Shown here piece by piece: positions 30,302-43,149 of a stretch of 64,000 bases of DNA. The position numbers and the translations under genes were made by a program. The notes below the pieces were generated by a model. It saw only the letters and a program-made list of their open reading frames with translations. It had not been told where the DNA came from and made no database searches. Origin of the DNA: Fibrobacter sp. UBA1765 (GTDB taxonomy: Bacteria; Fibrobacterota; Fibrobacteria; Fibrobacterales; Fibrobacteraceae); the NCBI GenBank assembly GCA_002314675.1, contig DCGZ01000157.1, forward strand, positions 177 to 64,176, written 5' to 3'. Position 1 is the stretch's first letter. Each line of letters starts with the position of its first letter.

Positions 30302-31693
30302 ATGAATGCCAAAAAGTTTTTATTGCCGCTAGTATGTTGCTCCATGTTTGGTCTTGCTGCTTGCGGTGGAGATTCATCATCTTCTTCGCCTGTAGTTCCT
30401 GACCCGACTCCTACACCGACTCCAGCTCCTGGACCTACTCCAAATCCTAATCCGGATCAGCCTGGCATTGGCGTTCCTGCAAACGCAAACCCTGCAATTA
30501 CGCAGAATTTGTATGCTGTGTGGAAGAGTGCTTTCGTAACCACGCTTTCTGAGGAACGCGCAAAGTACCCTACGCTTGGCATGGAATTCAATGAAGTCTT
30601 TGGTTCCTATATTGCCGCTGGTTATGACCCTGCCCGTGTGATTTGGCAGACACATACCGATACCAAGTGCTGGATTGACGAAGCTCAGGGCACCCCGATG
30701 TATAAGCGCGGTTGTACAGTTTCTGAAGGCATTGGCTATGGCATGATGATGTCTGTGCTCATGGAAGACTGGCCGACCTTTAACGGTATCTGGATCTACA
30801 GCAAGGCATACCGTGAATCCCCGTATGCAGGTCATACTCCAGAAAAGCCGGGTCTTATGCCATGGCTTACAAGTACCTTCAACTGGGGTGGCTACGGCGT
30901 GCTTGATGAATCCAGTGCAACTGATGCGGACCTTGATATCGGTGCTTCGCTTATCATTGCATGGTTGAAGACTGGCAATGAAGCCTATAAGGCAGACGCT
31001 TTGAATCTTATCAATGCTCTTTGGCAAGATGAAATCAATCCAGCCAACTTGATGATTCTTTCTGGTGACACTCCGATGTGGCATACAGCAGACCCAGTTT
31101 ACAACCTTTGCTACTTCTCTCCGGTTGCAATCCGCTTGTTTGCCATGGTTGACCCGAACCATGACTGGAATGGCGTGCTGAATGCAATGTACGATTATAT
31201 GGCTAAGGTTCAGGCAGCAGGCACTGGCGTGTTCCCGGACTGGAGCAACACCGCTGGCATGGCTGTCGACCCGAAGAATGGTTCTGCGACCAAGACCTAC
31301 TGGACATTCAACAAGGAATCTGTTCGTATCCCTTGGCGTATTGCTTGGGACTATATGTGGTTCCAGGATCCGCGTGCAGCCCAGGTGTTGAATACGTTGA
31401 ACGCATTCATTTCTGCTAAGTCTGGTGGCGATGTCAATGCTATTCCTGCAACGAACTACTCCTGGAATCCATCCATTGGTGGTGACATTGACAATAACAC
31501 CCTTTCTACACAGTGGCTTGCTGCATGGTGTGCTACCGGTGTCGCCGGCAACCCGGATTGGACCGCAAACTGCCTTGCCCGCTTGAATACTGTTGAAATG
31601 ACGACAAGCGCTTCTAGTTACTTTACAAACATTTTGCACCTGACATATAGCCAGTTGCTGAATGGTTACTACAAGAAGCCTGCTGGAATTTAA
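30302..31693 (+). CDS. GH8 glycoside hydrolase (endoglucanase/chitosanase family), lipoprotein
   Basis: Start MNAKKF with lipobox LAAC. TVSEGIGYGMMM (catalytic Glu block) and SATDADLDIGASLIIAW (close to the GH8 signature). Pro/Thr linker. Confidence 0.8.
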   Translation: MNAKKFLLPLVCCSMFGLAACGGDSSSSSPVVPDPTPTPTPAPGPTPNPNPDQPGIGVPANANPAITQNLYAVWKSAFVTTLSEERAKYPTLGMEFNEVFGSYIAAGYDPARVIWQTHTDTKCWIDEAQGTPMYKRGCTVSEGIGYGMMMSVLMEDWPTFNGIWIYSKAYRESPYAGHTPEKPGLMPWLTSTFNWGGYGVLDESSATDADLDIGASLIIAWLKTGNEAYKADALNLINALWQDEINPANLMILSGDTPMWHTADPVYNLCYFSPVAIRLFAMVDPNHDWNGVLNAMYDYMAKVQAAGTGVFPDWSNTAGMAVDPKNGSATKTYWTFNKESVRIPWRIAWDYMWFQDPRAAQVLNTLNAFISAKSGGDVNAIPATNYSWNPSIGGDIDNNTLSTQWLAAWCATGVAGNPDWTANCLARLNTVEMTTSASSYFTNILHLTYSQLLNGYYKKPAGI

Positions 31694-31712
31694 GACCAGC
31701 TACTTTGGAAAA

Positions 31713-31746
31713 AGACCCTGGGTGTTGCCCCAGGGCCTTTTTTATA
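31713..31746 (+). terminator. rho-independent terminator
   Basis: gaccctgg-gtgttg-ccccagggcc hairpin followed by a T run. Confidence 0.7.
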
Positions 31747-31825
31747 TAAGTCATTACCTAATTATGACTTACATTTTATTTAGTAATGAAATTTTACTCT
31801 TTAATAGTTATTATATTCAAGTGCG

Positions 31826-32605
31826 ATGAGTGAAAAACCGATTTATTCCGCTGAAGATTTGGGCATATCTATTGCAGCTTCGCTATCAAAGAATGTGATA
31901 ACGGTAGGGGACACGTTTGATTATACGGTGACTATTACCTGGGAGTCGAACAGTGTTCTTGCGTTAGTTCCAAAGACAAGTATTTATGCCAAGGGACTTT
32001 CGACTGTTGGAGTGAAGCAAAATTCTTCTCGCGATGTAAAAGACGGCAAGACCGTTTCTAAGAACGAGTTTGTCTATAAGGTTGCTGCAACTGATACTGG
32101 TTCTGTGACAATTCCGGAACTAAGCTTTATGGTTCCTGTCGAGGGTGCGCATACGATTGGACTTCGTACGCCTCCGAAGGAGTTTCATGTAGATGCCCCG
32201 GTAAATTTTTTGCCTTTTGTTGTAGGCCTTGTTGTGGCTTTTGCGCTGGTGTGTGCCTTTGTGATTAGAAAGCGCAAGCGTGCTGCGGCAGTTGCAAAAA
32301 AGGTGGCAAAAGCTGCCGAAGAAAATACGATCCGCGAAGAAATGCTTGTGTTGAAGTCTCGTGTAAAGGTTGCAGAAAGTAGGGAATGGCTACTTGCCCT
32401 GGAAACTGCAATGAAGCAATTTGCGAAGTGGAAGTTTGATAGTGAAGACCTTGAAGCTTTGGTAAGGAATGGCTCCATGGCAGATTTTGCAGAAACTGTC
32501 AAGCTGTTTTCGGAAGCCCGTTATGGAGGCGGGAACAGGGACCAGCTTGCAAACCTTGAAACATGGAAGGTAACTTTTAAACTGATGAACTTGGAAGAGG
32601 AGTAG
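31826..32605 (+). CDS. BatD-like / DUF4381-like single-pass membrane protein
   Basis: VGDTFDYTVTITWE Ig-like block, then a TM helix (FLPFVVGLVVAFALVCAFVI) and a helical tail. The architecture repeats in ORF 35382-36326. Confidence 0.55.
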   Translation: MSEKPIYSAEDLGISIAASLSKNVITVGDTFDYTVTITWESNSVLALVPKTSIYAKGLSTVGVKQNSSRDVKDGKTVSKNEFVYKVAATDTGSVTIPELSFMVPVEGAHTIGLRTPPKEFHVDAPVNFLPFVVGLVVAFALVCAFVIRKRKRAAAVAKKVAKAAEENTIREEMLVLKSRVKVAESREWLLALETAMKQFAKWKFDSEDLEALVRNGSMADFAETVKLFSEARYGGGNRDQLANLETWKVTFKLMNLEEE

Positions 32606-32922
32606 AAGAGACGAAAGAACGCTTCGCTGGTAGACGAGAGACGAAAGAAATGTTGATTTCCAATGTTTTAGAGATTAGAGGCTAGGTTCTAGAGACTAGA
32701 ATTAAGAATGAAATGTCATTGCGAGGGCCTTTAGGCCCGTGGCAATCCAGGACATGTCGCTTCAGTGTTCCTGGATGGCCGCGCGACCCTCGCCAAGACA
32801 TGGGAAGCTACAATCCTCTAGTTTCTTGTTTCTTCCATCTTCCGTCTTCTGACTTCTGTCCTCTTTCTTGCATCTTGCGTCTTGCTCTTGTATCTAAGAT
32901 TTGTAATAGAGATATTTAATAA
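32606..32922. repeat. ORF-less hairpin cassette: GA-word left arm, structured core, CT-word right arm
   Basis: Left arm (agacgaaag words and tagag/ctaga words, 32606-32702). Core 32714-32803 begins tgtcattgcgagggcctttaggccc, the reverse complement of the tcgcaatgaca core at 26474. The right arm is pyrimidine words (32818-32898). Confidence 0.7.
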
Positions 32923-33918
32923 ATGGAGAATAAAATGGATATTCAGGAACTTTCTGAAAAGGTTAGAGAAAAAAGTGTTTTTTGCGCAAACTTGATGCGC
33001 GAAGTGGAAGGTACCGTGATTGGCCAGAAGGCCATGGTCGAAAGCATTTTGACCGGTGTGCTCGCCGGTGGCCATGTGTTGCTTGAAGGTTTGCCGGGTC
33101 TTGCAAAGACAACTGCAGTAAAAGCTTTTGCCGATGCATTCAAGCTTGACTTTAAGCGTATCCAGTTTACACCGGACTTGCTCCCGGCAGATTTGCTCGG
33201 TACTACGATTTACAATGCCAAGGAAGCTCGATTTGAAATCCGCAAGGGACCATTGTTCAGTAACCTGATCTTGGCTGATGAAATTAACCGTGCTCCAAGC
33301 AAGGTACAGAGCGCCCTCCTTGAAGCTATGCAGGAACGCACCATTACCATTGGCGATGAATCCTTTAAGCTTGAAGAGCCGTTCCTTGTGCTTGCTACGC
33401 AGAACCCGATTGAACAGGAAGGTACATACCCGCTCCCTGAAGCGCAAGTAGACCGTTTCCTTTTGAAGGTGAAGGTTAGCTACCCGAACAAGAGTGACGA
33501 AATGCGCATTCTTGAAGCTGTAAGCGGCAACGGTTTGCGCACTCCGGCTCAGGTTGCCACAAAGGAAGACATTCTTGCTGCTCGTGAACTTGTGCGTTCC
33601 ATTTACGTGGACGAACGCGTTCGCGAATACATTGTGAATATTGTACTTGCAACCCGCGACCCGTCTAGCATCAAGAAGGCAGAACTTGCCGGCTTCATTG
33701 AAGTGGGGGCAAGCCCACGTGCTTCCATTGGCCTTGCTCAGGCTGCAAAGGCCCATGCATTTATCCAGGGCCGCGCTTACGTTACTCCGGAAGATGTAAA
33801 GGCTGTTGCCATGGAAGTACTGCGCCATCGCTTGGTGCTTAGTTACGAAGCCGAAGCCGAAGAAGTTGCCGCCGAAACTGTCGTGCAGAAGATTCTTGAT
33901 TCTGTTGAAGTGCCTTAA
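32923..33918 (+). CDS. moxR: MoxR-family AAA+ ATPase
   Basis: Walker A GLPGLAKT and Walker B ILADEINRA. Also LATQNPIEQEGTYPLPEAQVDRF. Alternative ATG at 32935. Confidence 0.9.
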   Translation: MENKMDIQELSEKVREKSVFCANLMREVEGTVIGQKAMVESILTGVLAGGHVLLEGLPGLAKTTAVKAFADAFKLDFKRIQFTPDLLPADLLGTTIYNAKEARFEIRKGPLFSNLILADEINRAPSKVQSALLEAMQERTITIGDESFKLEEPFLVLATQNPIEQEGTYPLPEAQVDRFLLKVKVSYPNKSDEMRILEAVSGNGLRTPAQVATKEDILAARELVRSIYVDERVREYIVNIVLATRDPSSIKKAELAGFIEVGASPRASIGLAQAAKAHAFIQGRAYVTPEDVKAVAMEVLRHRLVLSYEAEAEEVAAETVVQKILDSVEVP

Positions 33919-33933
33919 GCGGCTTTGCCGCTT

Positions 33934-34390
33934 AGAGAGCCAGATGCAAGATCAAGATGCAAGAGTAAATTAGGCACCTTCGGTGCGGGAATATATATGG
34001 AAAAACTGAAAAAATTTGTTCTTTGGCAAAAGGCTATGAATGTAGCTGAGAATGTGTATAGACTGACGCAAAAATTTCCAAGGGATGAAATTTATGGTTT
34101 GACATCTCAAATGCGAAGGGCCGCCGTATCAGTGGCAAGCAATATTGCTGAAGGTCAAAGTAGGTCTAGTGTTCTTGACCGCAATAGATTTCTTGAAATT
34201 GCAGATGGCTCTAAAATGGAATTGCAAACGCAATTAATGATTGCTGTTCGAATTGGATATACCAAGCAAGATGATATAGAAGATAGTTTGAATGTTCTGT
34301 CTGAAATCGGTAAAATGATTCATGCATTGAAGTTAAAACAGGTTTAGTTGAACATTTCTTGTATCTTGCGTCTTGCTCTTGCATCTTAAC
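33934..34390 (+). mobile_element. IVS-like cassette 1: four-helix-bundle gene bracketed by inverted word repeats
   Basis: Left arm 33941-33965 (cagatgcaagatcaagatgcaagag) pairs with right arm 34365-34388 at 21 of 24 positions without gaps. A gcacc-ttcg-gtgc tetraloop hairpin at 33974-33986 lies just before the ORF. Confidence 0.5.
33997..34347 (+). CDS. four-helix-bundle protein (23S rRNA intervening-sequence protein / Avd-like family)
   Basis: WQKAMNVAENVYRLTQKFPRDEIYGLTSQMRRAAVSVASNIAEGQSR...GSKMELQTQL is the family signature. Confidence 0.85.
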   Translation: MEKLKKFVLWQKAMNVAENVYRLTQKFPRDEIYGLTSQMRRAAVSVASNIAEGQSRSSVLDRNRFLEIADGSKMELQTQLMIAVRIGYTKQDDIEDSLNVLSEIGKMIHALKLKQV

Positions 34391-34391
34391 T

Positions 34392-35279
34392 ATGTTAAAT
34401 AAAGATATTCTAAAAACTGTTGCTCGCATTGAGCTTTCTGTGAAGGGGAAGCTTGATGCCGTGATGACTGGCGCGTACCATAGTTCCTTTAAGGGGAACG
34501 GTATGGAGTTTAGCGAGGTACGTGAATATGTGCCTGGTGACGACGTGCGTTCTATTGACTGGAATGTTACGGCTCGTACGGGAACTCCCTATATTAAGAA
34601 GTTCGTAGAAGAACGCGAACTTTCGATGCTCTTGATGATTGACGCTAGTTCAAGTTCTGAATTTGGTAGCGGTACGCAAATGAAGGGCGAGGCCATGGCT
34701 GCGCTCACTGCGCTCCTTGCCTTTGCAGCAACAAAGAACAACGACAAGGTTGGGCTTTTGATTTTTACGGATCAGGTTGAACTCTTTATTCCGCCAGCAA
34801 AGGGCCGTAAGCATGTGCTTAGACTTGTCCGAGAAATTCTTTACTTTAAGCCGCAGCACCATGGTACGAATTTGCAGGTCGCCTTGGATTATGCGGGCAA
34901 GATTTTGACACGCCGCTCCGTTGTCGTTGTGATGTCTGATTTTTTGGATGCTGGTTTTGACAGTGCCTTTAAGGTGCTACGTAAAAAGCATGATGTACTT
35001 GCTGTTGCAGTAAATGATGTTCGTGAAACGGAATTGCCGCCTGTTGGCCTCGTGGAACTTGAAGACCCTGAAACTGGAGAAACGCTGTTGATCGACACGG
35101 GCGACGCAAGTTTCCGTGAAGCGTTCATGCGCGAATCAAGAAAGAGTGCAAGGGAAATCGCAGAACGTTTTGCAAGGATGTCCGTTGACTTTGTGAAGGT
35201 CATGGTAAAGGATGATTTCCAGGAAACTGCCGCACCATTGATTGAACATTTTAGAAGGCGTGCAAAGGCTAGGGCTTAA
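34392..35279 (+). CDS. DUF58 domain protein (MoxR-associated, VWA-like)
   Basis: VREYVPGDDVRSIDWNVTAR motif. Sits in the expected moxR-DUF58-batA order. Start at ATG 34392. Confidence 0.85.
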   Translation: MLNKDILKTVARIELSVKGKLDAVMTGAYHSSFKGNGMEFSEVREYVPGDDVRSIDWNVTARTGTPYIKKFVEERELSMLLMIDASSSSEFGSGTQMKGEAMAALTALLAFAATKNNDKVGLLIFTDQVELFIPPAKGRKHVLRLVREILYFKPQHHGTNLQVALDYAGKILTRRSVVVVMSDFLDAGFDSAFKVLRKKHDVLAVAVNDVRETELPPVGLVELEDPETGETLLIDTGDASFREAFMRESRKSAREIAERFARMSVDFVKVMVKDDFQETAAPLIEHFRRRAKARA

Positions 35280-35381
35280 TGGTTAGGATCTGGTGGTTTG
35301 GATTTAGGATCTAGGATGTAGGTTTTTGTTATGAAATGTTGGAATTGCATATTTAGACGAAATGTTAATGGTGACCGTGGT

Positions 35382-36326
35382 ATGTCTATTATAAAATGTT
35401 GCAAGCAATTTTCTTGCATCTTGCATCTGCATCTTGCATCTAGAGTTTTTCTGTTTTCTGTTTTCTGTCTTCTGTCCTCTGTCAATGCCTTCGATGTTAG
35501 CGTGAATGCGTCTGTAAGTGCATCGCAGGTGTACATTGGCGATATCTTTACTTACCAGGTGGAAGTTACAGCACCAAAGGGCGCTTCTGTAGAATTGCCA
35601 AGTTTTGTAGGGAACCTTGGAAGCTTTGAAGTGCGTGATTGGAATACTTCGGAGACTCCGGCTGGTGAAACTTCTAAAACTATATGGACTGCGACGCTAA
35701 ATACTTTTGTGAGTGGAGATTTTGCACTTGCTCCGCAGCAAGTTGTTGTTGTGTATGATGGCGATTCTGTGCAGACTGTTACCGACCCGGTGCCTGTTCG
35801 TGTTTCGATGCGCACGACAGATGCGGATGTCGACATATTAGAAATCGAGGAACCGATGGAAATGCCGGGTACTCCATGGTATGTTTATGTACTGATTGCG
35901 CTTGGCATTTTGTTAGTTGCTGGACTTGTGTATTTTGCAATCAGGAATTGGAAGCGAACTGAAGTTGTGCGTATATTGCCACCGTATGAAGAAGCAGTTT
36001 TTGCTCTAAAAAAATTGAAGGATGGGAACCTTTCTGCAAACGACCAGGCGGCATTCTTTATGGAATTAGGCGTTGTTGTGCGCCGTTATGTGGAACGCAG
36101 GTTTGGAACGGATATTTTGGATGCGACGACTGCAGAACTTAAAAAGCGCATGGCGCATGTTCATGGTTTGCCAGAAGCGTTTAAGGCAGGAGTTGTAAGC
36201 CTTGCCGAAGAAACTGAACCTGTAAAGTTTGCAAAGATGAAACTTGGTGATGACAGGGTTGAGCATTGGATGAATTTTGCAGAAGAAATGGTGGAGAAGA
36301 CGAAGCCAACTGATCAGGAAAAGTAG
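35382..36326 (+). CDS. BatD-like / DUF4381-like single-pass membrane protein
   Basis: Signal-like RVFLFSVFCLLSSVNA, Ig-like IGDIFTYQVEVTAPKG, a TM helix (YVYVLIALGILLVAGLVYFAI) and a helical tail. Start is uncertain (ATG at 35331 or 35382). Confidence 0.6.
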   Translation: MSIIKCCKQFSCILHLHLASRVFLFSVFCLLSSVNAFDVSVNASVSASQVYIGDIFTYQVEVTAPKGASVELPSFVGNLGSFEVRDWNTSETPAGETSKTIWTATLNTFVSGDFALAPQQVVVVYDGDSVQTVTDPVPVRVSMRTTDADVDILEIEEPMEMPGTPWYVYVLIALGILLVAGLVYFAIRNWKRTEVVRILPPYEEAVFALKKLKDGNLSANDQAAFFMELGVVVRRYVERRFGTDILDATTAELKKRMAHVHGLPEAFKAGVVSLAEETEPVKFAKMKLGDDRVEHWMNFAEEMVEKTKPTDQEK

Positions 36327-36760
36327 TCTGTTGCTGTCGGCAGTCGGCTGAAATTGTAGTGATAAAGAGGTTTTTAATGGCGGGTTATCAAGATTTGGTT
36401 GTGTGGCAAAAGGCAATGGATGTTGTTGTTTTGGTTTATGAATTGACTGCAAAATTTCCGAAAGATGAAATTTTTGGATTAGTTTCTCAAATGAGGCGTG
36501 CCGCAGTGTCAATAGCAAGTAATATCGCAGAAGGTCAGGGCCGTAGAACGCAGAATGAGTTTAACCACTTTTTGGGTATTGCGAATGGTTCTAAAGCTGA
36601 GTTAGAAACGCAACTGCAATTATGTGAAAGAATTAAATATGTGGTGCGTGAAGATATTGAATTAGTGCTTAATTTATTGGATGATATTGGAAGGATGATT
36701 TATGGATTGCAAGGTAAATTACGTTAAATATTCAGCCGACAGCAACAGCCGACAGCAAAC
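36327..36760 (+). mobile_element. IVS-like cassette 2: four-helix-bundle gene bracketed by inverted repeats
   Basis: Left arm 36327-36352 and right arm 36731-36760 share complementary blocks ttcagccgac (10 nt) and gccgacagcaa (11 nt), separated by a 7-nt bulge on the right arm. Confidence 0.5.
36377..36727 (+). CDS. four-helix-bundle protein (23S rRNA intervening-sequence protein / Avd-like family)
   Basis: VVWQKAMDVVVLVYELTAKFPKDEIFGLVSQMRRAAVSIASNIAEGQGR...GSKAELETQL. RBS aaagagg. Confidence 0.85.
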   Translation: MAGYQDLVVWQKAMDVVVLVYELTAKFPKDEIFGLVSQMRRAAVSIASNIAEGQGRRTQNEFNHFLGIANGSKAELETQLQLCERIKYVVREDIELVLNLLDDIGRMIYGLQGKLR

Positions 36761-36772
36761 AAGGAAACTGTT

Positions 36773-37867
36773 ATGGATATTCTAGGTTACCATTTGCAGA
36801 ATCCGGAGGCGCTGTTTTTGCTTGCGCTTGTTCCGGTGCTTATTGCGGAATATGTATACCGCATGAAAAAACGCAAGAGCACGGTGAAGTTCCCGGCGCT
36901 TGCCATTGCAAAACGCGCAAAGCCGAGTGCCCGCGTTAAGTTTAGGCATATTGTACCGTTACTACGTTTGTTAGCTCTGTGCTGTTTTGTCGTGGCGCTT
37001 GCACGCCCCCAGAGCGCAACTGAAGTGGAATACACGTCTACTGATGGCGTAGACATTATGCTTGCGCTTGATGTATCTGGTTCCATGTCTACGCTTGATA
37101 TGCTCACGAAGGGTGATCGCATAAAGCTTGGTGTGATGAATGCAGACAAGGTGTATCGCTCGGGTGAATTCTGGAAGTTTAGCCGTTTAGGCTATGCAAA
37201 GGGCGTGATTGCGGACTTTATACAAAAGCGTGAAAGTGACCGTATTGGACTTTCTGTTTTTGCAGGTCGCAGTTTTACGCAGTGCCCGCTTACTTTGGAT
37301 TATGGTTCATTGCTTGAAATTTTGACTGCGGTTGATGATTCTTCTGCAACAGGAAACGGCACGGCGATTGGCGATGGCCTTATGAATTCCCTTGCTCGCC
37401 TAGAAAAGTCTGAAGCTAAATCACGTGTGGTTGTGCTTTTGACTGATGGTCGTGACAATGCTAGCCTTGTGCCACCGATGCAAGCGGCAGAAGTTGCAAA
37501 GACGCTTGGCGTTAAGGTGTATACAGTTGGCGTGGGTAAAAAGAACGGCGAAGTTCTTGCGTTCCAGCAGAATCCGTGGACAGGCGAAATTTCTTGGGGA
37601 GAACGAGAGATTCTTCCGGAAGAGGGCATTGATGAAAATATTTTGCGTGGGATTTCTGAAAAGACGGGTGGACGTTTTTACAGGGCCGAGAACAAGGAAC
37701 AGCTTGAAAACATTTACGAAGAAATCAATAATTTGGAAAAAACTGAAATTCATACTATTGCATACGCACGTTATGCTGAGAAATTTTACCCATGGCTGCT
37801 TGCTGGCGCTTTGCTGATTCTTGCGGAATTGCTGCTTGCCAATACCAAGTTTGTGAGAATTCCGTAG
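36773..37867 (+). CDS. batA: BatA-type VWA-domain membrane protein
   Basis: N-terminal BatA-like TM segment, MIDAS LALDVSGSMS, VVLLTDGRDN and a C-terminal TM. Confidence 0.85.
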   Translation: MDILGYHLQNPEALFLLALVPVLIAEYVYRMKKRKSTVKFPALAIAKRAKPSARVKFRHIVPLLRLLALCCFVVALARPQSATEVEYTSTDGVDIMLALDVSGSMSTLDMLTKGDRIKLGVMNADKVYRSGEFWKFSRLGYAKGVIADFIQKRESDRIGLSVFAGRSFTQCPLTLDYGSLLEILTAVDDSSATGNGTAIGDGLMNSLARLEKSEAKSRVVVLLTDGRDNASLVPPMQAAEVAKTLGVKVYTVGVGKKNGEVLAFQQNPWTGEISWGEREILPEEGIDENILRGISEKTGGRFYRAENKEQLENIYEEINNLEKTEIHTIAYARYAEKFYPWLLAGALLILAELLLANTKFVRIP

Positions 37868-37922
37868 TGAGAGGCAAGACGCAAGATCAAGACGCAAAAA
37901 TGAAATTTAAGAGTTGTATAAT

Positions 37923-38951
37923 ATGAGATTTGCAGAACCGATGTTTTTGTGGGGACTTTTTTCACTCCCTCTTTTAGCTTTACTTTTTTGGTATTCTTAC
38001 CATCGTAGAAAAAAGCTTGCTGAAAGGTTTGTTTCGCTTTCGATGCTTCCGAAAGTGGCTACGAGTCTTTCTCCTTGGCGTCGCTTGATAAAGTCTACGT
38101 TGCTTTTATTTGCTGTCGCATTCCTATTTGTTGCCCTTGCAAGGCCGCAATGGGGCATGGTCATGGAGCATGTGGAACGCAAGGGGCTTGACCTTGTTCT
38201 TTTACAGGATATTTCGCTTTCAATGCTTGCAGAAGATGTGAAGCCGAGCAGGCTTGTGCGTTCTAAACATGAAATTTCGGCCTTCCTTGAAAACTTGAGT
38301 GGAGACCGAGTCGGTCTTGTTGCGTTCAGTGGCGAGGCGAAGGTAATGGTGCCCTTGACACTTGACTATGGTACCGTGCAGACTATGCTTTCTGAATTGA
38401 ATCCGGGTTGGCTTATGCCGGGAACGAATCTTGAAAATGCAATTAGGGCTGGTATGCGCATGTTCAAGAATTCAGGAGCTGCCTCAAAATATTCTGTGAT
38501 GATCCTGATGAGCGATGGCGAAGAACTTGAAGCTTCTGCTGTTGCCGCTGCAAGGGAAGCTGCCGAAATGGGAATCAAGATTTACACAATTGGAATTGGT
38601 TCGCTTGATGGCGTTCCTATTCCGGTTCCATCAAGAAACGGAGACGTGCTTTACAAGAAGGATCGCCAAGGGAACATTGTGACAACGCATTTGGAAGAAC
38701 GTACCTTGCAAGATATTGCAAATGCAACTGGTGCTGCATACTTCCATGCTTCTCCAAGTGAATTCCAGCTGCAGAAAGTGCTTGAAGAAATTGCTTCCTT
38801 AGAAAAGAAGGAACATTCAAGCGACATGGCAGAAGGCTATAAGGATCGTTACCAGATTTTTCTTGCCATCGCAGCGTTACTTTTTTTGGCCGAGGCAGTT
38901 GTTTCTGAAAGAGGACGCAAGCGCAAGTTGTTGAACGGGAGGTTTTCGTGA
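37923..38951 (+). CDS. batB: BatB-type VWA-domain membrane protein
   Basis: N-terminal TM, VWA core (LLQDISLSM, LMSDGEE, IYTIGIG) and a C-terminal TM. First ATG is at 37923. Confidence 0.8.
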   Translation: MRFAEPMFLWGLFSLPLLALLFWYSYHRRKKLAERFVSLSMLPKVATSLSPWRRLIKSTLLLFAVAFLFVALARPQWGMVMEHVERKGLDLVLLQDISLSMLAEDVKPSRLVRSKHEISAFLENLSGDRVGLVAFSGEAKVMVPLTLDYGTVQTMLSELNPGWLMPGTNLENAIRAGMRMFKNSGAASKYSVMILMSDGEELEASAVAAAREAAEMGIKIYTIGIGSLDGVPIPVPSRNGDVLYKKDRQGNIVTTHLEERTLQDIANATGAAYFHASPSEFQLQKVLEEIASLEKKEHSSDMAEGYKDRYQIFLAIAALLFLAEAVVSERGRKRKLLNGRFS

Positions 38952-39712
38952 TGAGACGAGAGAATCGAATGCTGAAACATACGATTGCCTGTTTTCTGTT
39001 ATCTGTTTTCTTATTTCTGCCTAGTGCGTTTGCAGATGCAGTGAAGGATGGCAATAAGCTTTTTGCAGGTGCTGATTATGCAGGGGCTCTTGAAAAGTAC
39101 CAGAAGGCCCGTGAAGCAGACCCGGCTAACCCTATTTTGTTCTACAACATAGGAACATGCCAATATATGCTTGGAAATTACGATGAGGCCGCAAAGGAAT
39201 TGCAGAGTGCCGTAAGGATGCCAGATTCTTTGCTTGCTGCAAAGGCTGCCTACAATTTGGCAAATACGCATTTTAGAGCAGGCGAAAAACTAGAACCGGC
39301 ACAGAAAATTCAAAAGTTCAGAGAGTCGCTTGCTTATTTGAAGCGTGCCGTAGAACTTGCCCCGGATTTTGAAAAGGCAAAAAAGAACGCCGAAATTGTG
39401 CAGCGCCGTTTGAAGGAGGCGCTTGATGAACAGAAGGAACAAAATCAGGATAATCAAAACCAGGATCAGAAACAGCCAGAAATGAGCGATGCCGCAAAGG
39501 CGGCTCTTGCCCGTGCAGAACAGCTGTGCAAGCAAGGCGAATATGATGCTACAAAGCAGGTTCTGGAAAAGATTATAGCTGAAGATGAAACAGCTTCCCA
39601 GTTGAATTCGTATCTCCAACGCATAGAGGATATTATCGATATACAGGCTGGCCGTAAGCCAAAGGCAAAGATCGATGCCTCGAATGCCGATAATGATTTG
39701 GAGGTGATATGA
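38951..39712 (+). CDS. batC: BatC-like TPR protein
   Basis: Signal peptide ...CFLLSVFLFLPSAFA, TPR repeats and a Q/E-rich segment. TGATG overlap with batB. Alternative start ATG 38969. Confidence 0.7.
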   Translation: MRRENRMLKHTIACFLLSVFLFLPSAFADAVKDGNKLFAGADYAGALEKYQKAREADPANPILFYNIGTCQYMLGNYDEAAKELQSAVRMPDSLLAAKAAYNLANTHFRAGEKLEPAQKIQKFRESLAYLKRAVELAPDFEKAKKNAEIVQRRLKEALDEQKEQNQDNQNQDQKQPEMSDAAKAALARAEQLCKQGEYDATKQVLEKIIAEDETASQLNSYLQRIEDIIDIQAGRKPKAKIDASNADNDLEVI

Positions 39713-39717
39713 TTAGA

Positions 39718-39745
39718 GACGAAAGACGAAAGACGAAAGATGAAA
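39718..39745. repeat. heptamer tandem repeat (gacgaaa x3 + gatgaaa)
   Basis: Read directly after the batC stop. Followed by aggagtcag x2 at 39759-39778. Confidence 0.8.
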
Positions 39746-39792
39746 GGTATAGGAATAGGAGTCAGTTACAGGAGTCAGGAACTGAAAATTGC

Positions 39793-40491
39793 ATGGCTCA
39801 GAAAATTGTGTTTCTGATATTGTTGCTTGCGGTGTGTGCTTTTGCCTCGCCTAAGGCTAAGACTGCGTCTGCGTACTATGGCGATGCCGCGTACCTGTAT
39901 TTTCAGAATAGATTGCCCTCTGCAGAAATCGCTTGTGATGAAGGTCTTGAGAAGTATCCGAATGATTCTAAACTGCAAAATTTAAAGGCTAGAATCCAGG
40001 AAGCCAAGGATGAACAGCAAAAGCAGAATGAACAGAATAATCCTAATGGTCAAAATAACCAGGACCAAAATAAGGATCAGAACAAGGACGAAAACCAGGA
40101 CAAGAACAATCAAGACAAGCAGGACGAAAATCAGCAGAACAAGGGCGATTCCAGTTCCAGCGGCAGTGATGAAAATCAGCAGGATCAGGGCCAAAATGGA
40201 GAATCTTCAAGTTCTTCTGAGGGTGGCGAAAATCAGCAGAATCAGAATGGCTCTGGTGAAAGTTCTTCTAGCGACATGTCTTCTAGCTCAAATGGCGAAG
40301 GTGAAAATCAGGAACAGGGTGGGCAAGAAAACCAGCAGGAAAATGCCGATGAGCCAAGGGATCCTGAAGATCCAAATGCCATGTCTAGGGAACAGGCATC
40401 TCAGCTATTGAAGGATTTCGATGAACAGAATGGTGAGCGAAAGCCGTGGAAACCGGCACGAGGTCAGGTTTACCCGGAAAAGGACTGGTAA
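39793..40491 (+). CDS. secreted TPR-like protein with long Gln/Asn/Asp/Ser low-complexity region (Bat operon tail gene)
   Basis: Signal peptide MAQKIVFLILLLAVCAFA. About 130 aa of NQD/QNK/SSS low complexity. Conserved-looking C-terminus MSREQASQLLKDFDEQ. Confidence 0.6.
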   Translation: MAQKIVFLILLLAVCAFASPKAKTASAYYGDAAYLYFQNRLPSAEIACDEGLEKYPNDSKLQNLKARIQEAKDEQQKQNEQNNPNGQNNQDQNKDQNKDENQDKNNQDKQDENQQNKGDSSSSGSDENQQDQGQNGESSSSSEGGENQQNQNGSGESSSSDMSSSSNGEGENQEQGGQENQQENADEPRDPEDPNAMSREQASQLLKDFDEQNGERKPWKPARGQVYPEKDW

Positions 40492-40578
40492 AAAAGGAAT
40501 CTTGAAAATATTTGAAAAAAGGCTGGGCTTTAGTGTCCATGCCTTTTTTGTTTGCTTAATATTATTAATTTGTACATT

Positions 40579-43149
40579 ATGAAGAATTTAAGAAAAAAGA
40601 TTTTGGCTCAATACATTGTCACGCTTGTCTTGACCCTTGCGGCAATTTCTGCTGTTGTTGCCTTTACATTTAATTCCTTTTTTAAGGCGACTAAAGAAGA
40701 TGTAATTACAATAGGTGAAAATGCAGTTTCTAAAAATGCAGAAATGCTTAACAGTTTTTTGCTTAAGAGTATTGACGTGTTGACCGTTACCTCGCAGATT
40801 CTTGATTACATGGTAATCAACGGGTCTTCTGCAAATGAAATTGAAAAATTGCTTCAAGATGAAAGTGAGCGCTATACGCGCTTCGTTGATCCGAATTTTA
40901 CAGGTATTTATGGCGTTTTTAAAGGCAAGTATATTGACGGCTCCGGCTGGGTTCCTGAAGCTGGCTATGTTCCAGAAGATCGCCCCTGGTATAAGGCTGC
41001 GTTTGCTGCCGATGGACGCGTTGCTCTTGTCCCGCCTTATTTTGATGCCAAGGAACGCAAGGTTATTATTTCGGTAAGCCAGTTGCTGTCTGACAAGAAG
41101 AGTGTCGTATCTTTTGATATTATGCTTGACGTTGCCCAGAAAATGGTTGACGAAGCTGAATTTAACGGTGGTGTTGGCAAGTCGATGGTGTTTGACCATT
41201 CGGGTCTTGTGATTGCGCATGCAAATTCTGCATATAAGGGCAAGAATTTTTTTAGTACTGAATTTGCCGGTACTGAAAATTATGCCTTGCTAGATAAACT
41301 TTATAAGGCAAAGTCTAATTCTTTTGAAATGAACTTCGATAGGCAGCCTTGCCGCGTGTTTTTTGCGATTGTTCAGGATGACTGGTTTGTTGTAACCGTT
41401 GTAAATGAAACGGAACTTTTTGAAAATGTAAAGAACATTCTTTACAGGAACATTTTGCTTTCGTTGCTGTTGTTCGCGTTGCTTGGGTATTTTTGCACAG
41501 CAAGTTACCGCAACAGAATCAAGGCTCTTGAATCTAACTATGCAAAGTCGATATTCCTTGCGAATATGAGCCATGAAATTAGGACCCCGATTAACGGGAT
41601 TCTTGGAATGAACTCCATGATCTTGAAGGCTACAAAGAATGACACCCTTCATGAATGCGCTCTGAATATTCAAAGTGCCGGCCATACATTGCTTTCCATA
41701 GTAAATGACATTCTTGACATTTCAAAAATTGAATCTGGCAAGATGGAAATTTTGGCTAGTGATTACGAATTGTTCAATGTCTTGAACGATTGCTATAACA
41801 TGGTTGCCTCTAAGGCAGAAGAAAAGGCCTTGAAGTTTGAATTGAAGCTAGACCAGACTTTGCCTTCTGCGTTGTATGGCGATGAAGTCAGAATTCGCCA
41901 GGTTATAAACAACTTGCTTTCTAATGCTGTAAAGTATACGGAGCATGGCGGAATCGTTTTTAGCATGAGTTGCAAGCCGGTTAAGGCTAGCCAGGGAATT
42001 TCTGAGGGGTCGAAGGTCATACTTGTTATCAAGGTTGTTGATTCTGGACAGGGTATTCGACCAGAAGACCTGATGAAGCTCTTCAATATGTTTGAACGCA
42101 TTGATGAACGGAAAAACCGTAGCATTGAAGGTTCTGGGCTTGGTCTTAATCTTGCAAAGAACCTTGTCGAGCGTATGGATGGCGAAATTTATGTACAGAG
42201 CGATTTTGGTGCTGGTACCACCTTCACGGTAGAAATTCCTCAAATTGTTCGAAATATTACGCCACTCGGAAATTTTGCAGAACGCTATAGAAATTCTATT
42301 TTAAACAGCAAGCTTTCAAGCGATGAATTTGTTGCCCCGAATGCAAAAATTCTTGTAGTCGACGACGTTCGCATGAACTTGATGGTCGTTGAAGGCTTGC
42401 TGAAGGAAACCGGTATTCAAATAGATACTGTAACGAGCGGTGCGGAGTGCCTTGTTGCAATTCGCCATACCCGTTACGATATCATTTTCTTGGATCACAT
42501 GATGCCTGTTATGGATGGCGTAGAAACATTGCATAACATGAAGACTCTCCCTGATAATAAATGCATTGGCGTTCCAGTTGTTATGATGACTGCCAATGCG
42601 ATTATTGGTGCTAAGGAAAGTTACTTGGAAGAGGGCTTTGATGATTATCTTTCAAAGCCTGTGAGCGAAGCTGCCCTTTTGCAAATGCTTAAAAAGTATT
42701 TGGCTCCACACCTTTTGGAAACTCCCAGCAAGGTCCGTGTTACACCGATTGCAACGGCACTTTCGGTTGCCGACATGAAGACTGAAGGAGTTTCGGCTTC
42801 GAACTTGTTTATCGAAAAATTGAAAGCGGTTGGCTTAGATACACAGATGGGCCTTAACTACTGCATGAACGATGAAGATTTCTATTCCGAGATGATCGAG
42901 GAGTTTAAACATTCCGACAAGAGAGCGGAACTTGAAAAATTCCTGCTTGAAGGCGATCTGAAAAATTACCGCATTTTGATACATGCGCTAAAGAGCAATT
43001 CAAGAACGATTGGTGCCGCGGAACTTTCGAAGGCCTGTGAAGCATTGGAAAACGCATGTGTTGCTTGCGATGTTGACTATGTGAAAAACAACCATGGCGC
43101 AGCACTTGCAACTTATGCGGAATTGTTGCAAAAACTAGAAAGCGTTTAA
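40579..43149 (+). CDS. hybrid sensor histidine kinase (Cache-like sensor, HisKA, HATPase, REC, Hpt)
   Basis: Two TM helices flank a periplasmic Cache-like domain. H-box SHEIRTPING, G-boxes DSGQGI and GSGLGL, REC (VVDDVRMN, LDHMMPVMDG) and Hpt HALKSNSRTIGA. Confidence 0.9.
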   Translation: MKNLRKKILAQYIVTLVLTLAAISAVVAFTFNSFFKATKEDVITIGENAVSKNAEMLNSFLLKSIDVLTVTSQILDYMVINGSSANEIEKLLQDESERYTRFVDPNFTGIYGVFKGKYIDGSGWVPEAGYVPEDRPWYKAAFAADGRVALVPPYFDAKERKVIISVSQLLSDKKSVVSFDIMLDVAQKMVDEAEFNGGVGKSMVFDHSGLVIAHANSAYKGKNFFSTEFAGTENYALLDKLYKAKSNSFEMNFDRQPCRVFFAIVQDDWFVVTVVNETELFENVKNILYRNILLSLLLFALLGYFCTASYRNRIKALESNYAKSIFLANMSHEIRTPINGILGMNSMILKATKNDTLHECALNIQSAGHTLLSIVNDILDISKIESGKMEILASDYELFNVLNDCYNMVASKAEEKALKFELKLDQTLPSALYGDEVRIRQVINNLLSNAVKYTEHGGIVFSMSCKPVKASQGISEGSKVILVIKVVDSGQGIRPEDLMKLFNMFERIDERKNRSIEGSGLGLNLAKNLVERMDGEIYVQSDFGAGTTFTVEIPQIVRNITPLGNFAERYRNSILNSKLSSDEFVAPNAKILVVDDVRMNLMVVEGLLKETGIQIDTVTSGAECLVAIRHTRYDIIFLDHMMPVMDGVETLHNMKTLPDNKCIGVPVVMMTANAIIGAKESYLEEGFDDYLSKPVSEAALLQMLKKYLAPHLLETPSKVRVTPIATALSVADMKTEGVSASNLFIEKLKAVGLDTQMGLNYCMNDEDFYSEMIEEFKHSDKRAELEKFLLEGDLKNYRILIHALKSNSRTIGAAELSKACEALENACVACDVDYVKNNHGAALATYAELLQKLESV

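Follow-up and report, generated by a model that had tools for sequence, protein, structure and literature searches.

A PF05635 gene between inverted heptamer-type arms: an apparently exchanged cassette in a Fibrobacter Bat operon

Intervening sequences (IVSs) in rRNA that carry a conserved open reading frame have been known since the early 1990s, without a mechanism that would explain their spread and without a function. We know of no catalytic activity in the protein family concerned, PF05635, and of no characterised relative of it other than Avd. In Coxiella burnetii, the 428-nt IVS of helix 45, which has a terminal stem of 28 bp, harbours an S23p ORF and is a substrate of RNase III cleavage (Warrier et al. 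2016, PMC4990558), and an ORF-bearing IVS has also been described in Leptospira (Ralph & McClelland 1993, cited in PMC4990558). The PF05635 protein itself has been treated as uncharacterised (PMC4990558, PMC11270868, PMC10053308). XCC0516 was reported as five four-helix bundles, the conserved motif was given as GxxRxxxSxxxNxxE, and a PF05635 gene was found wedged inside cas operons (PMC3936711). Avd, for its part, is an accessory protein that binds nucleic acids and RT (PMC10053308).

Over-represented arrays of heptamers are found in many bacterial genomes and lack an explanation. The cyanobacterial STRR heptanucleotides belong to these arrays. Further examples are GGGAATC in Xanthomonas and GGGGA(C/T)T in Nostoc (Rehm et al. 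2015, PMC4692102), as well as the TAACTGA arrays of Beggiatoaceae, cyanobacteria and Bacteroidetes (MacGregor 2015, PMC4679880). In Xanthomonas, 70-75 pairs of heptamer arrays lie in convergent, i.e., inverted, orientation (PMC4692102). In both of these studies, the arrays are discussed as regulatory repeats or G-quadruplexes, without mention of the PF05635 family (PMC4692102, PMC4679880).

The locus described here, in a Bat/MoxR operon of Fibrobacter sp. UBA1765, has features of both. In the reading that joins the evidence best, and which we consider rather probable, the segment at about 36327-36772 of the window (the whole stretch of 64,000 nt that was analysed) is allele 'A' of a promoterless mobile cassette, composed of a 5′ arm, a Shine-Dalgarno (SD) sequence, a PF05635 gene (IVP) and a 3′ arm complementary, in inverted orientation, to the 5′ arm, and this cassette is exchanged between lineages. 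Its parts and its surroundings are as follows.

35331-36326, + strand: upstream host gene, BatD/DUF4381-like
36325-36816, + strand: low-diversity tract, common to diverged strains, which marks the presumed exchanged unit
36327-36352, + strand: left (5′) arm TCTGTTGCTGTCGGCAGTCGGCTGAA, with the heptamer-type units GTCGGCA and GTCGGCT, directly 3′ of the BatD-like stop codon
36353-36376, + strand: loop-side spacer, with the Shine-Dalgarno-like AAAGAGG 8 nt 5′ of the ATG and no promoter-like site
36377-36727, + strand: IVP gene, for a four-helix-bundle protein of 116 aa of the 23S rRNA IVS family (PF05635 / TIGR02436)
36731-36760, + strand: right (3′) arm TTCAGCCGACAGCAACAGCCGACAGCAAACA, which begins 3 nt past the ORF stop
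36761-36772, + strand: short spacer AGGAAACTGTT, which gives batA an SD-like AGGAA
36773-37867, + strand: downstream host gene batA (BatA_N and VWA)
33919-34392, + strand: sister cassette 1, with the IVP ORF at 33997-34347 and arms built on GATGCAA/TTGCATC, between moxR and DUF58

The IVP ORF runs from ATG to TAA, with the BatD-like gene upstream, whose stop codon TAG is at 36324-36326, and with batA downstream. The right arm contains a perfect tandem 13-mer, CAGCCGACAGCAA x2, at 36733-36758. A scan of the cassette for promoters and terminators gave no signal above shuffle expectation, and an Rfam search of 31500-41000 found no known RNA family.

The original prediction regarded this ORF as the second member of a cassette family whose first member is cassette 1, and this was borne out: its product matches PF05635 with 134.5 bits (cut-off 33.8) over positions 1-106 of 106, the geometry of the two cassettes is the same, and their arm words are unrelated. 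IVP also matches TIGR02436 (126.8 bits, cut-off 24) and NF008911 (145.9 bits, cut-off 137), and its closest non-allelic homologue is 65% identical. It is furthermore related to PDB entry 2GSC (XCC0516; E 1e-23), which was deposited with five chains. The motif RxxxSxxxNxxE is present in IVP as RAAVSIASNIAE. The motif region reads QMRRAAVSIASNIAEG, where R, S, N and E, which are invariant in the alignment, are correctly spaced, and where the leading G of the published motif is replaced by Q. The profiles for Avd remain below their cut-offs (NF033474 with 38.9 bits, cut-off 80; PF22296 with 33.9 bits, cut-off 40); IVP is a distant relative of DGR Avd. Profile searches recognised no known nuclease domain in the 116-aa protein, it has no match among the PADLOC defence models, and there is neither an integrase nor a transposase among the ORFs neighbouring the cassette. 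A recombinase was likewise not seen.

The arms were found at the coordinates at which they had been predicted. In reverse complement, the left arm reads TTCAGCCGAC-T-GCCGACAGCAACAGA, and the arms pair in perfect blocks of 10 nt and 11 nt that are separated by the predicted 7-nt bulge, more precisely a 1x7 internal loop with 7 unpaired nucleotides in the right arm and 1 in the left; alternative pairing registers exist. The RNAduplex energy of the 70 nt upstream of the ORF with the 45 nt downstream of it is −38.9 kcal/mol. A genome-wide null distribution has a mean of −18.8 and an sd of 6.0, with 7 of 2940 random placements pairing as well as the arms, and mononucleotide shuffles of the arms have a minimum of −32.4 kcal/mol, with none reaching the energy of the real pair. 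When 36300-36790 is folded, the long-range terminal stem is part of the MFE structure as well as of the centroid.

These numbers bear on the possibility that the arms are just two among the many word-repeat spacers of the operon, and that their complementarity is a matter of chance or a low-complexity artefact. Nearly every spacer of the Bat/MoxR operon does contain a period-7 array, and there are some 100-240 such arrays in the genome (100 tandem arrays of period 7 were counted, as opposed to 0-16 for each other period between 4 and 12). However, inverted-complementary words occur in merely 2 of 94 neighbouring array pairs, one of which is cassette 3, and hence low-complexity spacers alone do not explain the complementarity. 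Furthermore, the genome has three PF05635 genes, the one described here, one in cassette 1 (33997-34347) and one on contig C11, and all three have matched inverted arms (7 of the 2940 placements being as good for the present cassette, and 6 and 1 for the other two), built on different words (GTCGGCA, GATGCAA and GACGAGA). Matched arms also flank 66 of 84 family loci, and each of three alleles at the BatD-like/batA junction, which are introduced below, has an arm pair of its own. A chance origin of the arm complementarity is therefore excluded, the statistical comparison with random placements, shuffles and array pairs having gone in favour of the prediction, and we consider the probability of a low-complexity artefact to be negligible.

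The family survey from which this number is taken covered 80 loci from many phyla, or 84 with the local copies. Compared with shifted controls, the flanking inverted matches lie above the 95th percentile in the 66 loci and above the 99th in 50 of the 84; among loci on viral contigs, 24 of 32 are above the 95th percentile. Of 58 arms on each side, 50 on the left and 51 on the right (about 87%) have a period of 7 nt. Their median length in the survey is 27 nt, the right arm begins at a median distance of 9 nt past the stop, and there is a base bias in that left arms are poor in C (11%) and right arms poor in G (12%). Inverted arrays of ~7-nt repeats that enclose PF05635 genes are thus a general feature across phyla and extend to viral contigs. 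The claim that complementarity is kept while the sequence changes was confirmed both across the family and among the three alleles at this junction. Two ideas about the heptamers were rejected. They do not serve as translation stops in three frames, because GTCGGCA, GATGCAA and GACGAGA contain no stop codon, and G-rich repeats added at the 3′ end in a telomerase-like manner do not account for them either, the G-rich strand being on the 5′ side on both strands.

Within the Fibrobacteraceae, 28 of the 61 genomes sampled carry 1-4 copies of the cassette, and 33 of the 61 carry none. Relatives have cassettes at many unrelated junctions, for instance between lysS and lolE or inside a methylase gene, and a functional association with the Bat operon, which had been proposed as one possibility from the presence of two cassettes in one operon, is not supported. 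At the lysS/lolE junction, the ORFs fall into at least three deep clades whose arms differ, and there are clades that occur at more than one site. According to a crude test, the neighbouring genes on both sides are co-directional in 45 of 75 loci, which is near the bacterial background.

It had also been suggested to check whether the arm words match words in the flanking host spacers, as under a target-site preference. A word of the GTCGGCA type is absent from the other spacers of the operon and is found only in two distant modules without an ORF: the cassette word GCCGACA recurs at C11:17663 and C96:5, in both cases as the arm of such an ORF-less module. The spacer of the C11 module also holds a core, TGTCATTGCGAGGGCC...GGCAATCC, and the same core is present in the ORF-less spacer 32606-32922 of the window; GTCATTGCGAG occurs 70 times in the genome. 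On account of these shared arms and cores, ORF-bearing and ORF-less hairpin modules coexist in this genome, as IVSs with and without an ORF do in rRNA. A 23S rRNA gene was not among the assembled sequences of this MAG.

For an analysis of the populations, the exact IVP protein and the clusters of BatA proteins were traced into public assemblies, which yielded 15 contigs from different samples; most of the contigs used are metagenome assemblies (Logan). The host lineages and the alleles at the BatD-like/batA junction are the following.

Host 1, which includes the window: batA nucleotide identity of 93-96% within the lineage
Host 2: batA ~99% identical within the lineage and 90-92% identical to that of host 1
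Host 3, the G003 species: batA ~81% identical to hosts 1 and 2
Allele A, that of the window: 116 aa, arm word GTCGGCA, in hosts 1 and 2
Allele B: 124 aa, arm words GACGGAA / TTCCGTC, in hosts 1, 2 and 3
Allele C: 121 aa, arms GGAGTCAG / CTGACTCC, in hosts 1 and 3

Among the 15 contigs, the nucleotide identity of the cassettes is 98-100% within an allele and 65-71% between alleles, and the proteins of A, B and C have 57-64% aa identity. In the same matrix, the batA clades are 81%, 90-91% and 95-96% identical. The alleles being 98-100% alike where batA is only 81-96% alike, horizontal exchange with arms and ORF as one unit is indicated, and this amounts to population evidence for the 'active spread' of the original prediction. 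Along the same lines, one and the same BatA protein (P0121) adjoins either allele A or allele B, and another (P0241) either A or C. In L200, the genes moxR, DUF58, BatD-like, batA and batB are 95-99% identical to those of the window and 80-87% identical to those of G003, and the cassettes at both sites (moxR/DUF58 and BatD-like/batA) are 99.1-99.6% identical to those of G003. The junction sequences of A, B and C have fewer than 31 nt in common, which disfavours chimeric joins as an explanation. In alleles B and C, the spacer AGGAAACTGTT 5′ of batA is replaced by AACTAGGAACTTGAAA.

The limits of the unit can be seen by comparing more closely related strains. Between the window and four conspecific contigs with allele A, 0-3 of the 446 positions of the cassette differ, as opposed to 3.7-9.7% in the flanking genes. 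Binomial P values bearing on the exchange lie between 2e-7 and 1e-30. As to the drop in diversity, the last difference in the left flank is at 36319 or 36324, and differences resume at ~36817-36856, such that the exchanged unit comprises the cassette, extended by at most ~65 nt to the left and by ~50-95 nt to the right. Both arms are unchanged in all seven copies of allele A (the window and 6 other contigs), and the sole two polymorphic positions near the left arm, 36353 and 36375, are both in the loop-side spacer. In one strain with allele A, the upstream stop codon is GAG, and the BatD-like ORF continues into the left arm. Cassette 1 presents a similar picture, with differences at 3 of 474 positions and 3-4% in the flanks, and the alternative allele at its site has 99.4-99.6% in common with G003. 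The copies of the window and of G003 at the same site are 60% identical, and the G003 copy groups with the cassette-1 clade. An interpretation of these two copies as orthologues was rejected, since they are no closer than paralogues, the reason for this being that the junction is polymorphic for swapped alleles.

Taken together, the sequences indicate that the cassettes have been exchanged horizontally between lineages, including across a gap of species level, with breakpoints no more than tens of bases away from the arms. In the papers that were searched, we found no account of IVP cassettes with heptamer arms outside rRNA, nor of strains exchanging them; new here is that the junction is polymorphic for three alleles of the cassette, each with arms of its own, and that these are exchanged.

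As to how the cassette came to lie at this junction, the distance from the BatD-like stop to the batA start is 18-41 nt, or the two genes overlap, in three of four congeners (G001, G002 and G004), and the same holds for nine other genomes that were sampled in the family. In L010, L012 and L013, 246-288 nt lie between the BatD-like gene and batA, with no IVP match. The remaining congener, G003, is the sole genome in this sampling of congeners and family with a PF05635 gene at the junction. The cassette is hence an insertion into a junction that is abutting or overlapping in related genomes. None of the junctions seen in the three exchanging lineages was empty, and what has been captured is therefore the replacement of alleles rather than de novo insertion. 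Neither the junctions of A, B and C nor a comparison with the empty sites, which are too diverged for a firm judgement, revealed a direct target duplication, and no conserved core site is visible at the junctions.

Three side observations concern this junction. At the empty site of G001 and G004, the sequence AAGAAGTCAGGAG is similar to GGAGTCAG, the left arm of allele C, which recalls the idea of arms that are copied from the target. Allele A has no likeness to the empty-site sequence beyond AGTC. Contig L201 carries a batA allele with a different short gene upstream; the contig ends 136 nt upstream.

The gene ends on either side of the cassette are conserved. The last ~44 nt of the adjoining BatD-like gene (about 36264-36310) are near-identical in the three host lineages, and the first 32-45 nt of batA are identical across lineages that otherwise differ by 19%. 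These ends may be co-conversion tracts of repeated homing-like events, or else short anchors for recombination. In the latter case, the cassette could be passive allelic cargo that is replaced by ordinary homologous recombination in the conserved ends of BatD-like and batA after DNA uptake. Its old alleles would be kept by balancing or frequency-dependent selection on the IVP protein, e.g., in a conflict with phages or plasmids, and the complementarity of its arms by DNA template switching from one inverted repeat to the other (quasipalindrome correction) and by heptamer slippage, rather than by selection on an RNA stem. The conserved blocks do border the cassette on both sides (~44 nt left, 32-45 nt right), and they are alike enough that homologous recombination of the ordinary kind could account for the swaps, but their identity at synonymous sites despite the 19% divergence looks like co-conversion, all the more so as congeners with an empty site differ at synonymous positions in both blocks. 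Three deep alleles across three lineages are reminiscent of a trans-species polymorphism, yet related ORF clades at unrelated junctions require more than the replacement of alleles, and for a role in phage or plasmid conflict no PADLOC defence model was matched. The absence of a mobility enzyme from the cassette would also fit passive cargo, as would the 100 period-7 arrays of the genome (0-16 for other periods), most of which are without an IVP gene, and, with respect to DNA-level copying of the arms, the symmetry of G·U and A·C mismatches and the concerted changes of whole arrays that are described below.

A different situation is encountered where the cassette lies inside type III-like methylase genes. 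In four such loci, which include two paralogous genes in one genome, the cassettes are 98.9-99.8% identical, whereas the flanks are 65-78% identical. This would be hard to achieve for RecA-type recombination, and it seems to favour something beyond flank homology. On balance, we find it doubtful that the cassette is passive cargo.

A further reading concerns the arms themselves, acting as DNA and not as RNA. As a hairpin, a cruciform or single-stranded DNA, they could be the substrate of a site- or structure-specific insertion and excision, carried out by a host enzyme or by, or with the assistance of, a pentameric IVP, along the logic of integron attC sites, IS200/IS605 or REP/RAYT. The arms travel with the ORF and delimit the exchanged unit, although neither a target duplication nor a conserved core site is visible at the junctions. 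The allele-specific arm words suggest a match between protein and arm, but copies with different arms are found in one genome, such that one enzyme would have to accept many words. As regards the enzyme, there is no integrase or transposase in the neighbourhood, PF05635 is without known catalysis, and Avd is an accessory protein (PMC10053308). The ORF-less modules with the same kinds of arms would correspond to non-autonomous elements, the mismatches in the arms have no RNA-specific signature, and the methylase frame that reads through the cassette (see below) fits an element that does not require removal from RNA. In sum, we regard an action of the arms as DNA recombination sites as rather unlikely.

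The original prediction saw selection on a stem as the cause of the preserved complementarity. This is not a necessary consequence. When the transition mismatches in the arms of 67 loci were counted as they would appear in sense RNA, there were 62 G·U and 69 A·C (p = 0.6), and this symmetry lends no support to selection on the sense RNA, the same picture being obtained if arms are copied at the DNA level. The wobble test on the sense strand thus neither proves nor disproves an RNA stem. In the clade of cassette 3, whole arrays have changed in concert, from GACGAGA/TCTCGTC to GACGAAA/TTTCGTC. Full-length MFE folds contain 20-23 terminal pairs in each of the alleles A, B and C. In four related loci, an ORF for a 734-aa methylase is open through the entire cassette in another frame. 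The transcript should therefore at least sometimes be translated uncut, and a stem that is always cut would make little sense there. RNase III is encoded in the genome, and by analogy to the rRNA IVSs an RNA stem of the RNase III type is plausible.

Returning to the preferred reading, that of a promoterless mobile cassette, the events could be envisaged as follows. Having no promoter or terminator of its own, the cassette would be transcribed with the operon, and in the transcript the arms would close a stem of 21-25 bp around the ORF, as in the S23p-bearing IVSs of 23S rRNA. RNase III would probably cut this stem and thereby release the cassette mRNA, such that a selfish insert could be tolerated in the operon at low cost. 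The exchange may take place through a homing-like event with the cassette as its starting point, or else the short conserved ends of the two genes may recombine, and IVP is the only candidate for a factor that is encoded by the element itself.

The locus can be viewed as a natural experiment, in which three alleles have apparently been swapped among three Fibrobacter lineages and in which the unit is mapped within tens of bases. What was previously 'possibly once mobile' becomes a testable process at the population level, and cultivable Fibrobacter with cassettes at lysS/lolE are candidate test systems. Should the transfer be driven by IVP, this protein would stand for a new kind of mobility factor, and its family has thousands of members in various phyla and on phage contigs. 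Otherwise, a trans-lineage polymorphism of allelic cassettes is in need of a selective explanation. The inserts also matter for annotation and for operon models, because they split translationally coupled genes and may sit inside reading frames. Going further, one might tentatively imagine that PF05635 genes with inverted heptamer arms are a widespread, undescribed class of self-propagating cassettes that home into operon junctions, protein-coding genes and rRNA helices, the pentameric protein recognising its own, allele-specific arms, as DNA or RNA, and promoting their transfer. The rRNA IVSs would then be special cases, and the arrays of Xanthomonas, cyanobacteria and Beggiatoa would be remnants.

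How does the cassette compare to known systems? A distant homology links its protein to Avd, likewise a four-helix bundle that forms pentamers. The neighbours of the cassette, however, are Bat/MoxR genes, the RT, template repeat and variable repeat of a DGR are absent, and the single RT of the genome is on contig C134. With respect to insertion sequences and MITEs, inverted termini are present in the cassette; there is no transposase near it, and its termini differ between copies in the genome. Integron cassettes are similar in that they are promoterless single-gene units with imperfect, foldable inverted repeats, and in that alternative cassettes are found at a fixed site. In contrast to these, the cassette has two arms that enclose the ORF instead of one 3′ attC, its arms are repeat arrays, neither an integrase, among the neighbouring ORFs, nor an attI was found close by, and there is no array of cassettes.

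With homing introns and inteins, the cassette shares the invasion of a fixed site, an identity of the element that is far above that of the flanks, flanks that look co-converted, and in-frame insertion into a host gene. The pattern that is typical of homing, i.e., an element at a fixed site that is much more alike than its flanks and is bordered by short co-converted stretches, was found at this junction. Unlike in these elements, there is no recognisable nuclease domain and no known splicing, and several unrelated alleles compete for the site. The heptamer arrays of other genomes resemble the arms in being tandem 7-nt units in spacers close behind upstream genes, and the excess of period-7 arrays in this genome is comparable to that in heptamer-array genomes. 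Here, however, the arrays enclose a gene and travel together with it, and their words differ between the cassettes of one genome.

The closest system is the IVS of 23S rRNA. The protein is of the same PF05635/S23p family, the size is similar (428 nt in Coxiella, ~434-446 nt here), a terminal inverted repeat forms a stem of 20-28 bp around the ORF, and neither has a promoter of its own. Both have a sporadic distribution that suggests horizontal transfer, and mobility has long been suspected. The differences are that the cassette is located in an mRNA operon, with a protein-coding gene on either side, and not in helix 9, 25 or 45 of the rRNA, that several alleles swap at one junction, and that the arms are of the heptamer type with allele-specific words. 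Excision by RNase III has been shown for the rRNA IVS and would apply to the cassette by analogy. As judged from its sequence and that of its alleles, the cassette is an IVS-type element in an mRNA operon, with direct evidence of horizontal exchange as a unit.

In one strain, represented by the contigs L035 and L193, the stop codon of the BatD-like gene that precedes the IVP cassette (TAG, window 36324-36326) is replaced by GAG, and the BatD-like protein extends through the left arm, giving 342 aa versus 331. Arms and reading-frame ends likewise overlap in the other cassettes known from the BatD-like/batA junction, alleles B and C. The arms are therefore translatable as protein tails. In a further contig (L201, 1-140), the batA allele belongs to the same 90% cluster, and what comes before it is the end of another short gene (...EIQQLDEMIKVLGK*), overlapping the batA start. 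This may be a candidate for a fourth kind of occupant of the junction; the sequence seen there reaches only 136 nt upstream.

PF05635 cassettes also lie inside a gene:

L153 1000-3204, (-) strand: type III-like DNA methylase gene (734 aa) with internal PF05635 cassette
L133, L134, L132 (G060, G053, G071): further loci with a PF05635 cassette inside the methylase gene

The cassette sits in a linker, with EIGKERIRRAG on one side and RGFRVLKL on the other, and the methylase reading frame is open across its whole length, such that the IVP ORF is overlapped in another frame. Across the four loci the cassette is ~99% identical, and the flanks are 65-78% identical.

Many Fibrobacteraceae genomes have an IVP cassette at the junction between lysS and a lolE-like gene; these cassettes fall into at least three deeply divergent IVP clades, and their arms differ:

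G000:C11:1830-2310 (same genome as the window); L123, L151, L137, L150, L155, L138, L149, L129: IVP cassettes at the lysS/lolE-like junction

In L123 (also in L040), a cassette with CTAACCA arms is followed by a residual array of TCTCGTC units, which looks like the trace of one cassette being replaced by another.

Polymorphism is also seen at a second junction, the batA/batB spacer, which contains no ORF:

window 37868-37913; L204 4704-5004; L206 4704-4844; L208 1664-1798: batA/batB spacer

Its length differs among strains (46, 134, 140 and 300 nt); arrays of the heptamers ACAGAGG, GTAGGAA and GACGGAA, together with a CATTGCGAG core, are present in the long version.

Genome-wide in G000, tandem arrays of period 7 are strongly in excess (n=100 versus 0-16 for periods 4-12), the commonest words being GACGAGA, GACGAAA, GACGGAA, AAGAATT and GATGCAA. 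Almost all spacers of the Bat/MoxR operon (window 32831-39746) contain one, and the majority of the genome's period-7 arrays have no neighbouring IVP gene. The sole reverse-transcriptase match of this genome is unlinked to all three of its IVP genes:

G000:C134:6943-7545, (-) strand: reverse-transcriptase match in a 459-aa open frame

Nested inverted heptamer arrays also form composite spacers:

window 32606-32922: ORF-less composite spacer
G000:C11:17200-17900: ORF-less composite spacer
G000:C96:1-300: ORF-less composite spacer

In those of the window and C11 the arrays enclose a repeated core, TGTCATTGCGAGGGCCTTTAGGCCCGTGGCAATCC. The genome holds 70 copies of GTCATTGCGAG, and these repeats look like a REP/MITE-like family.
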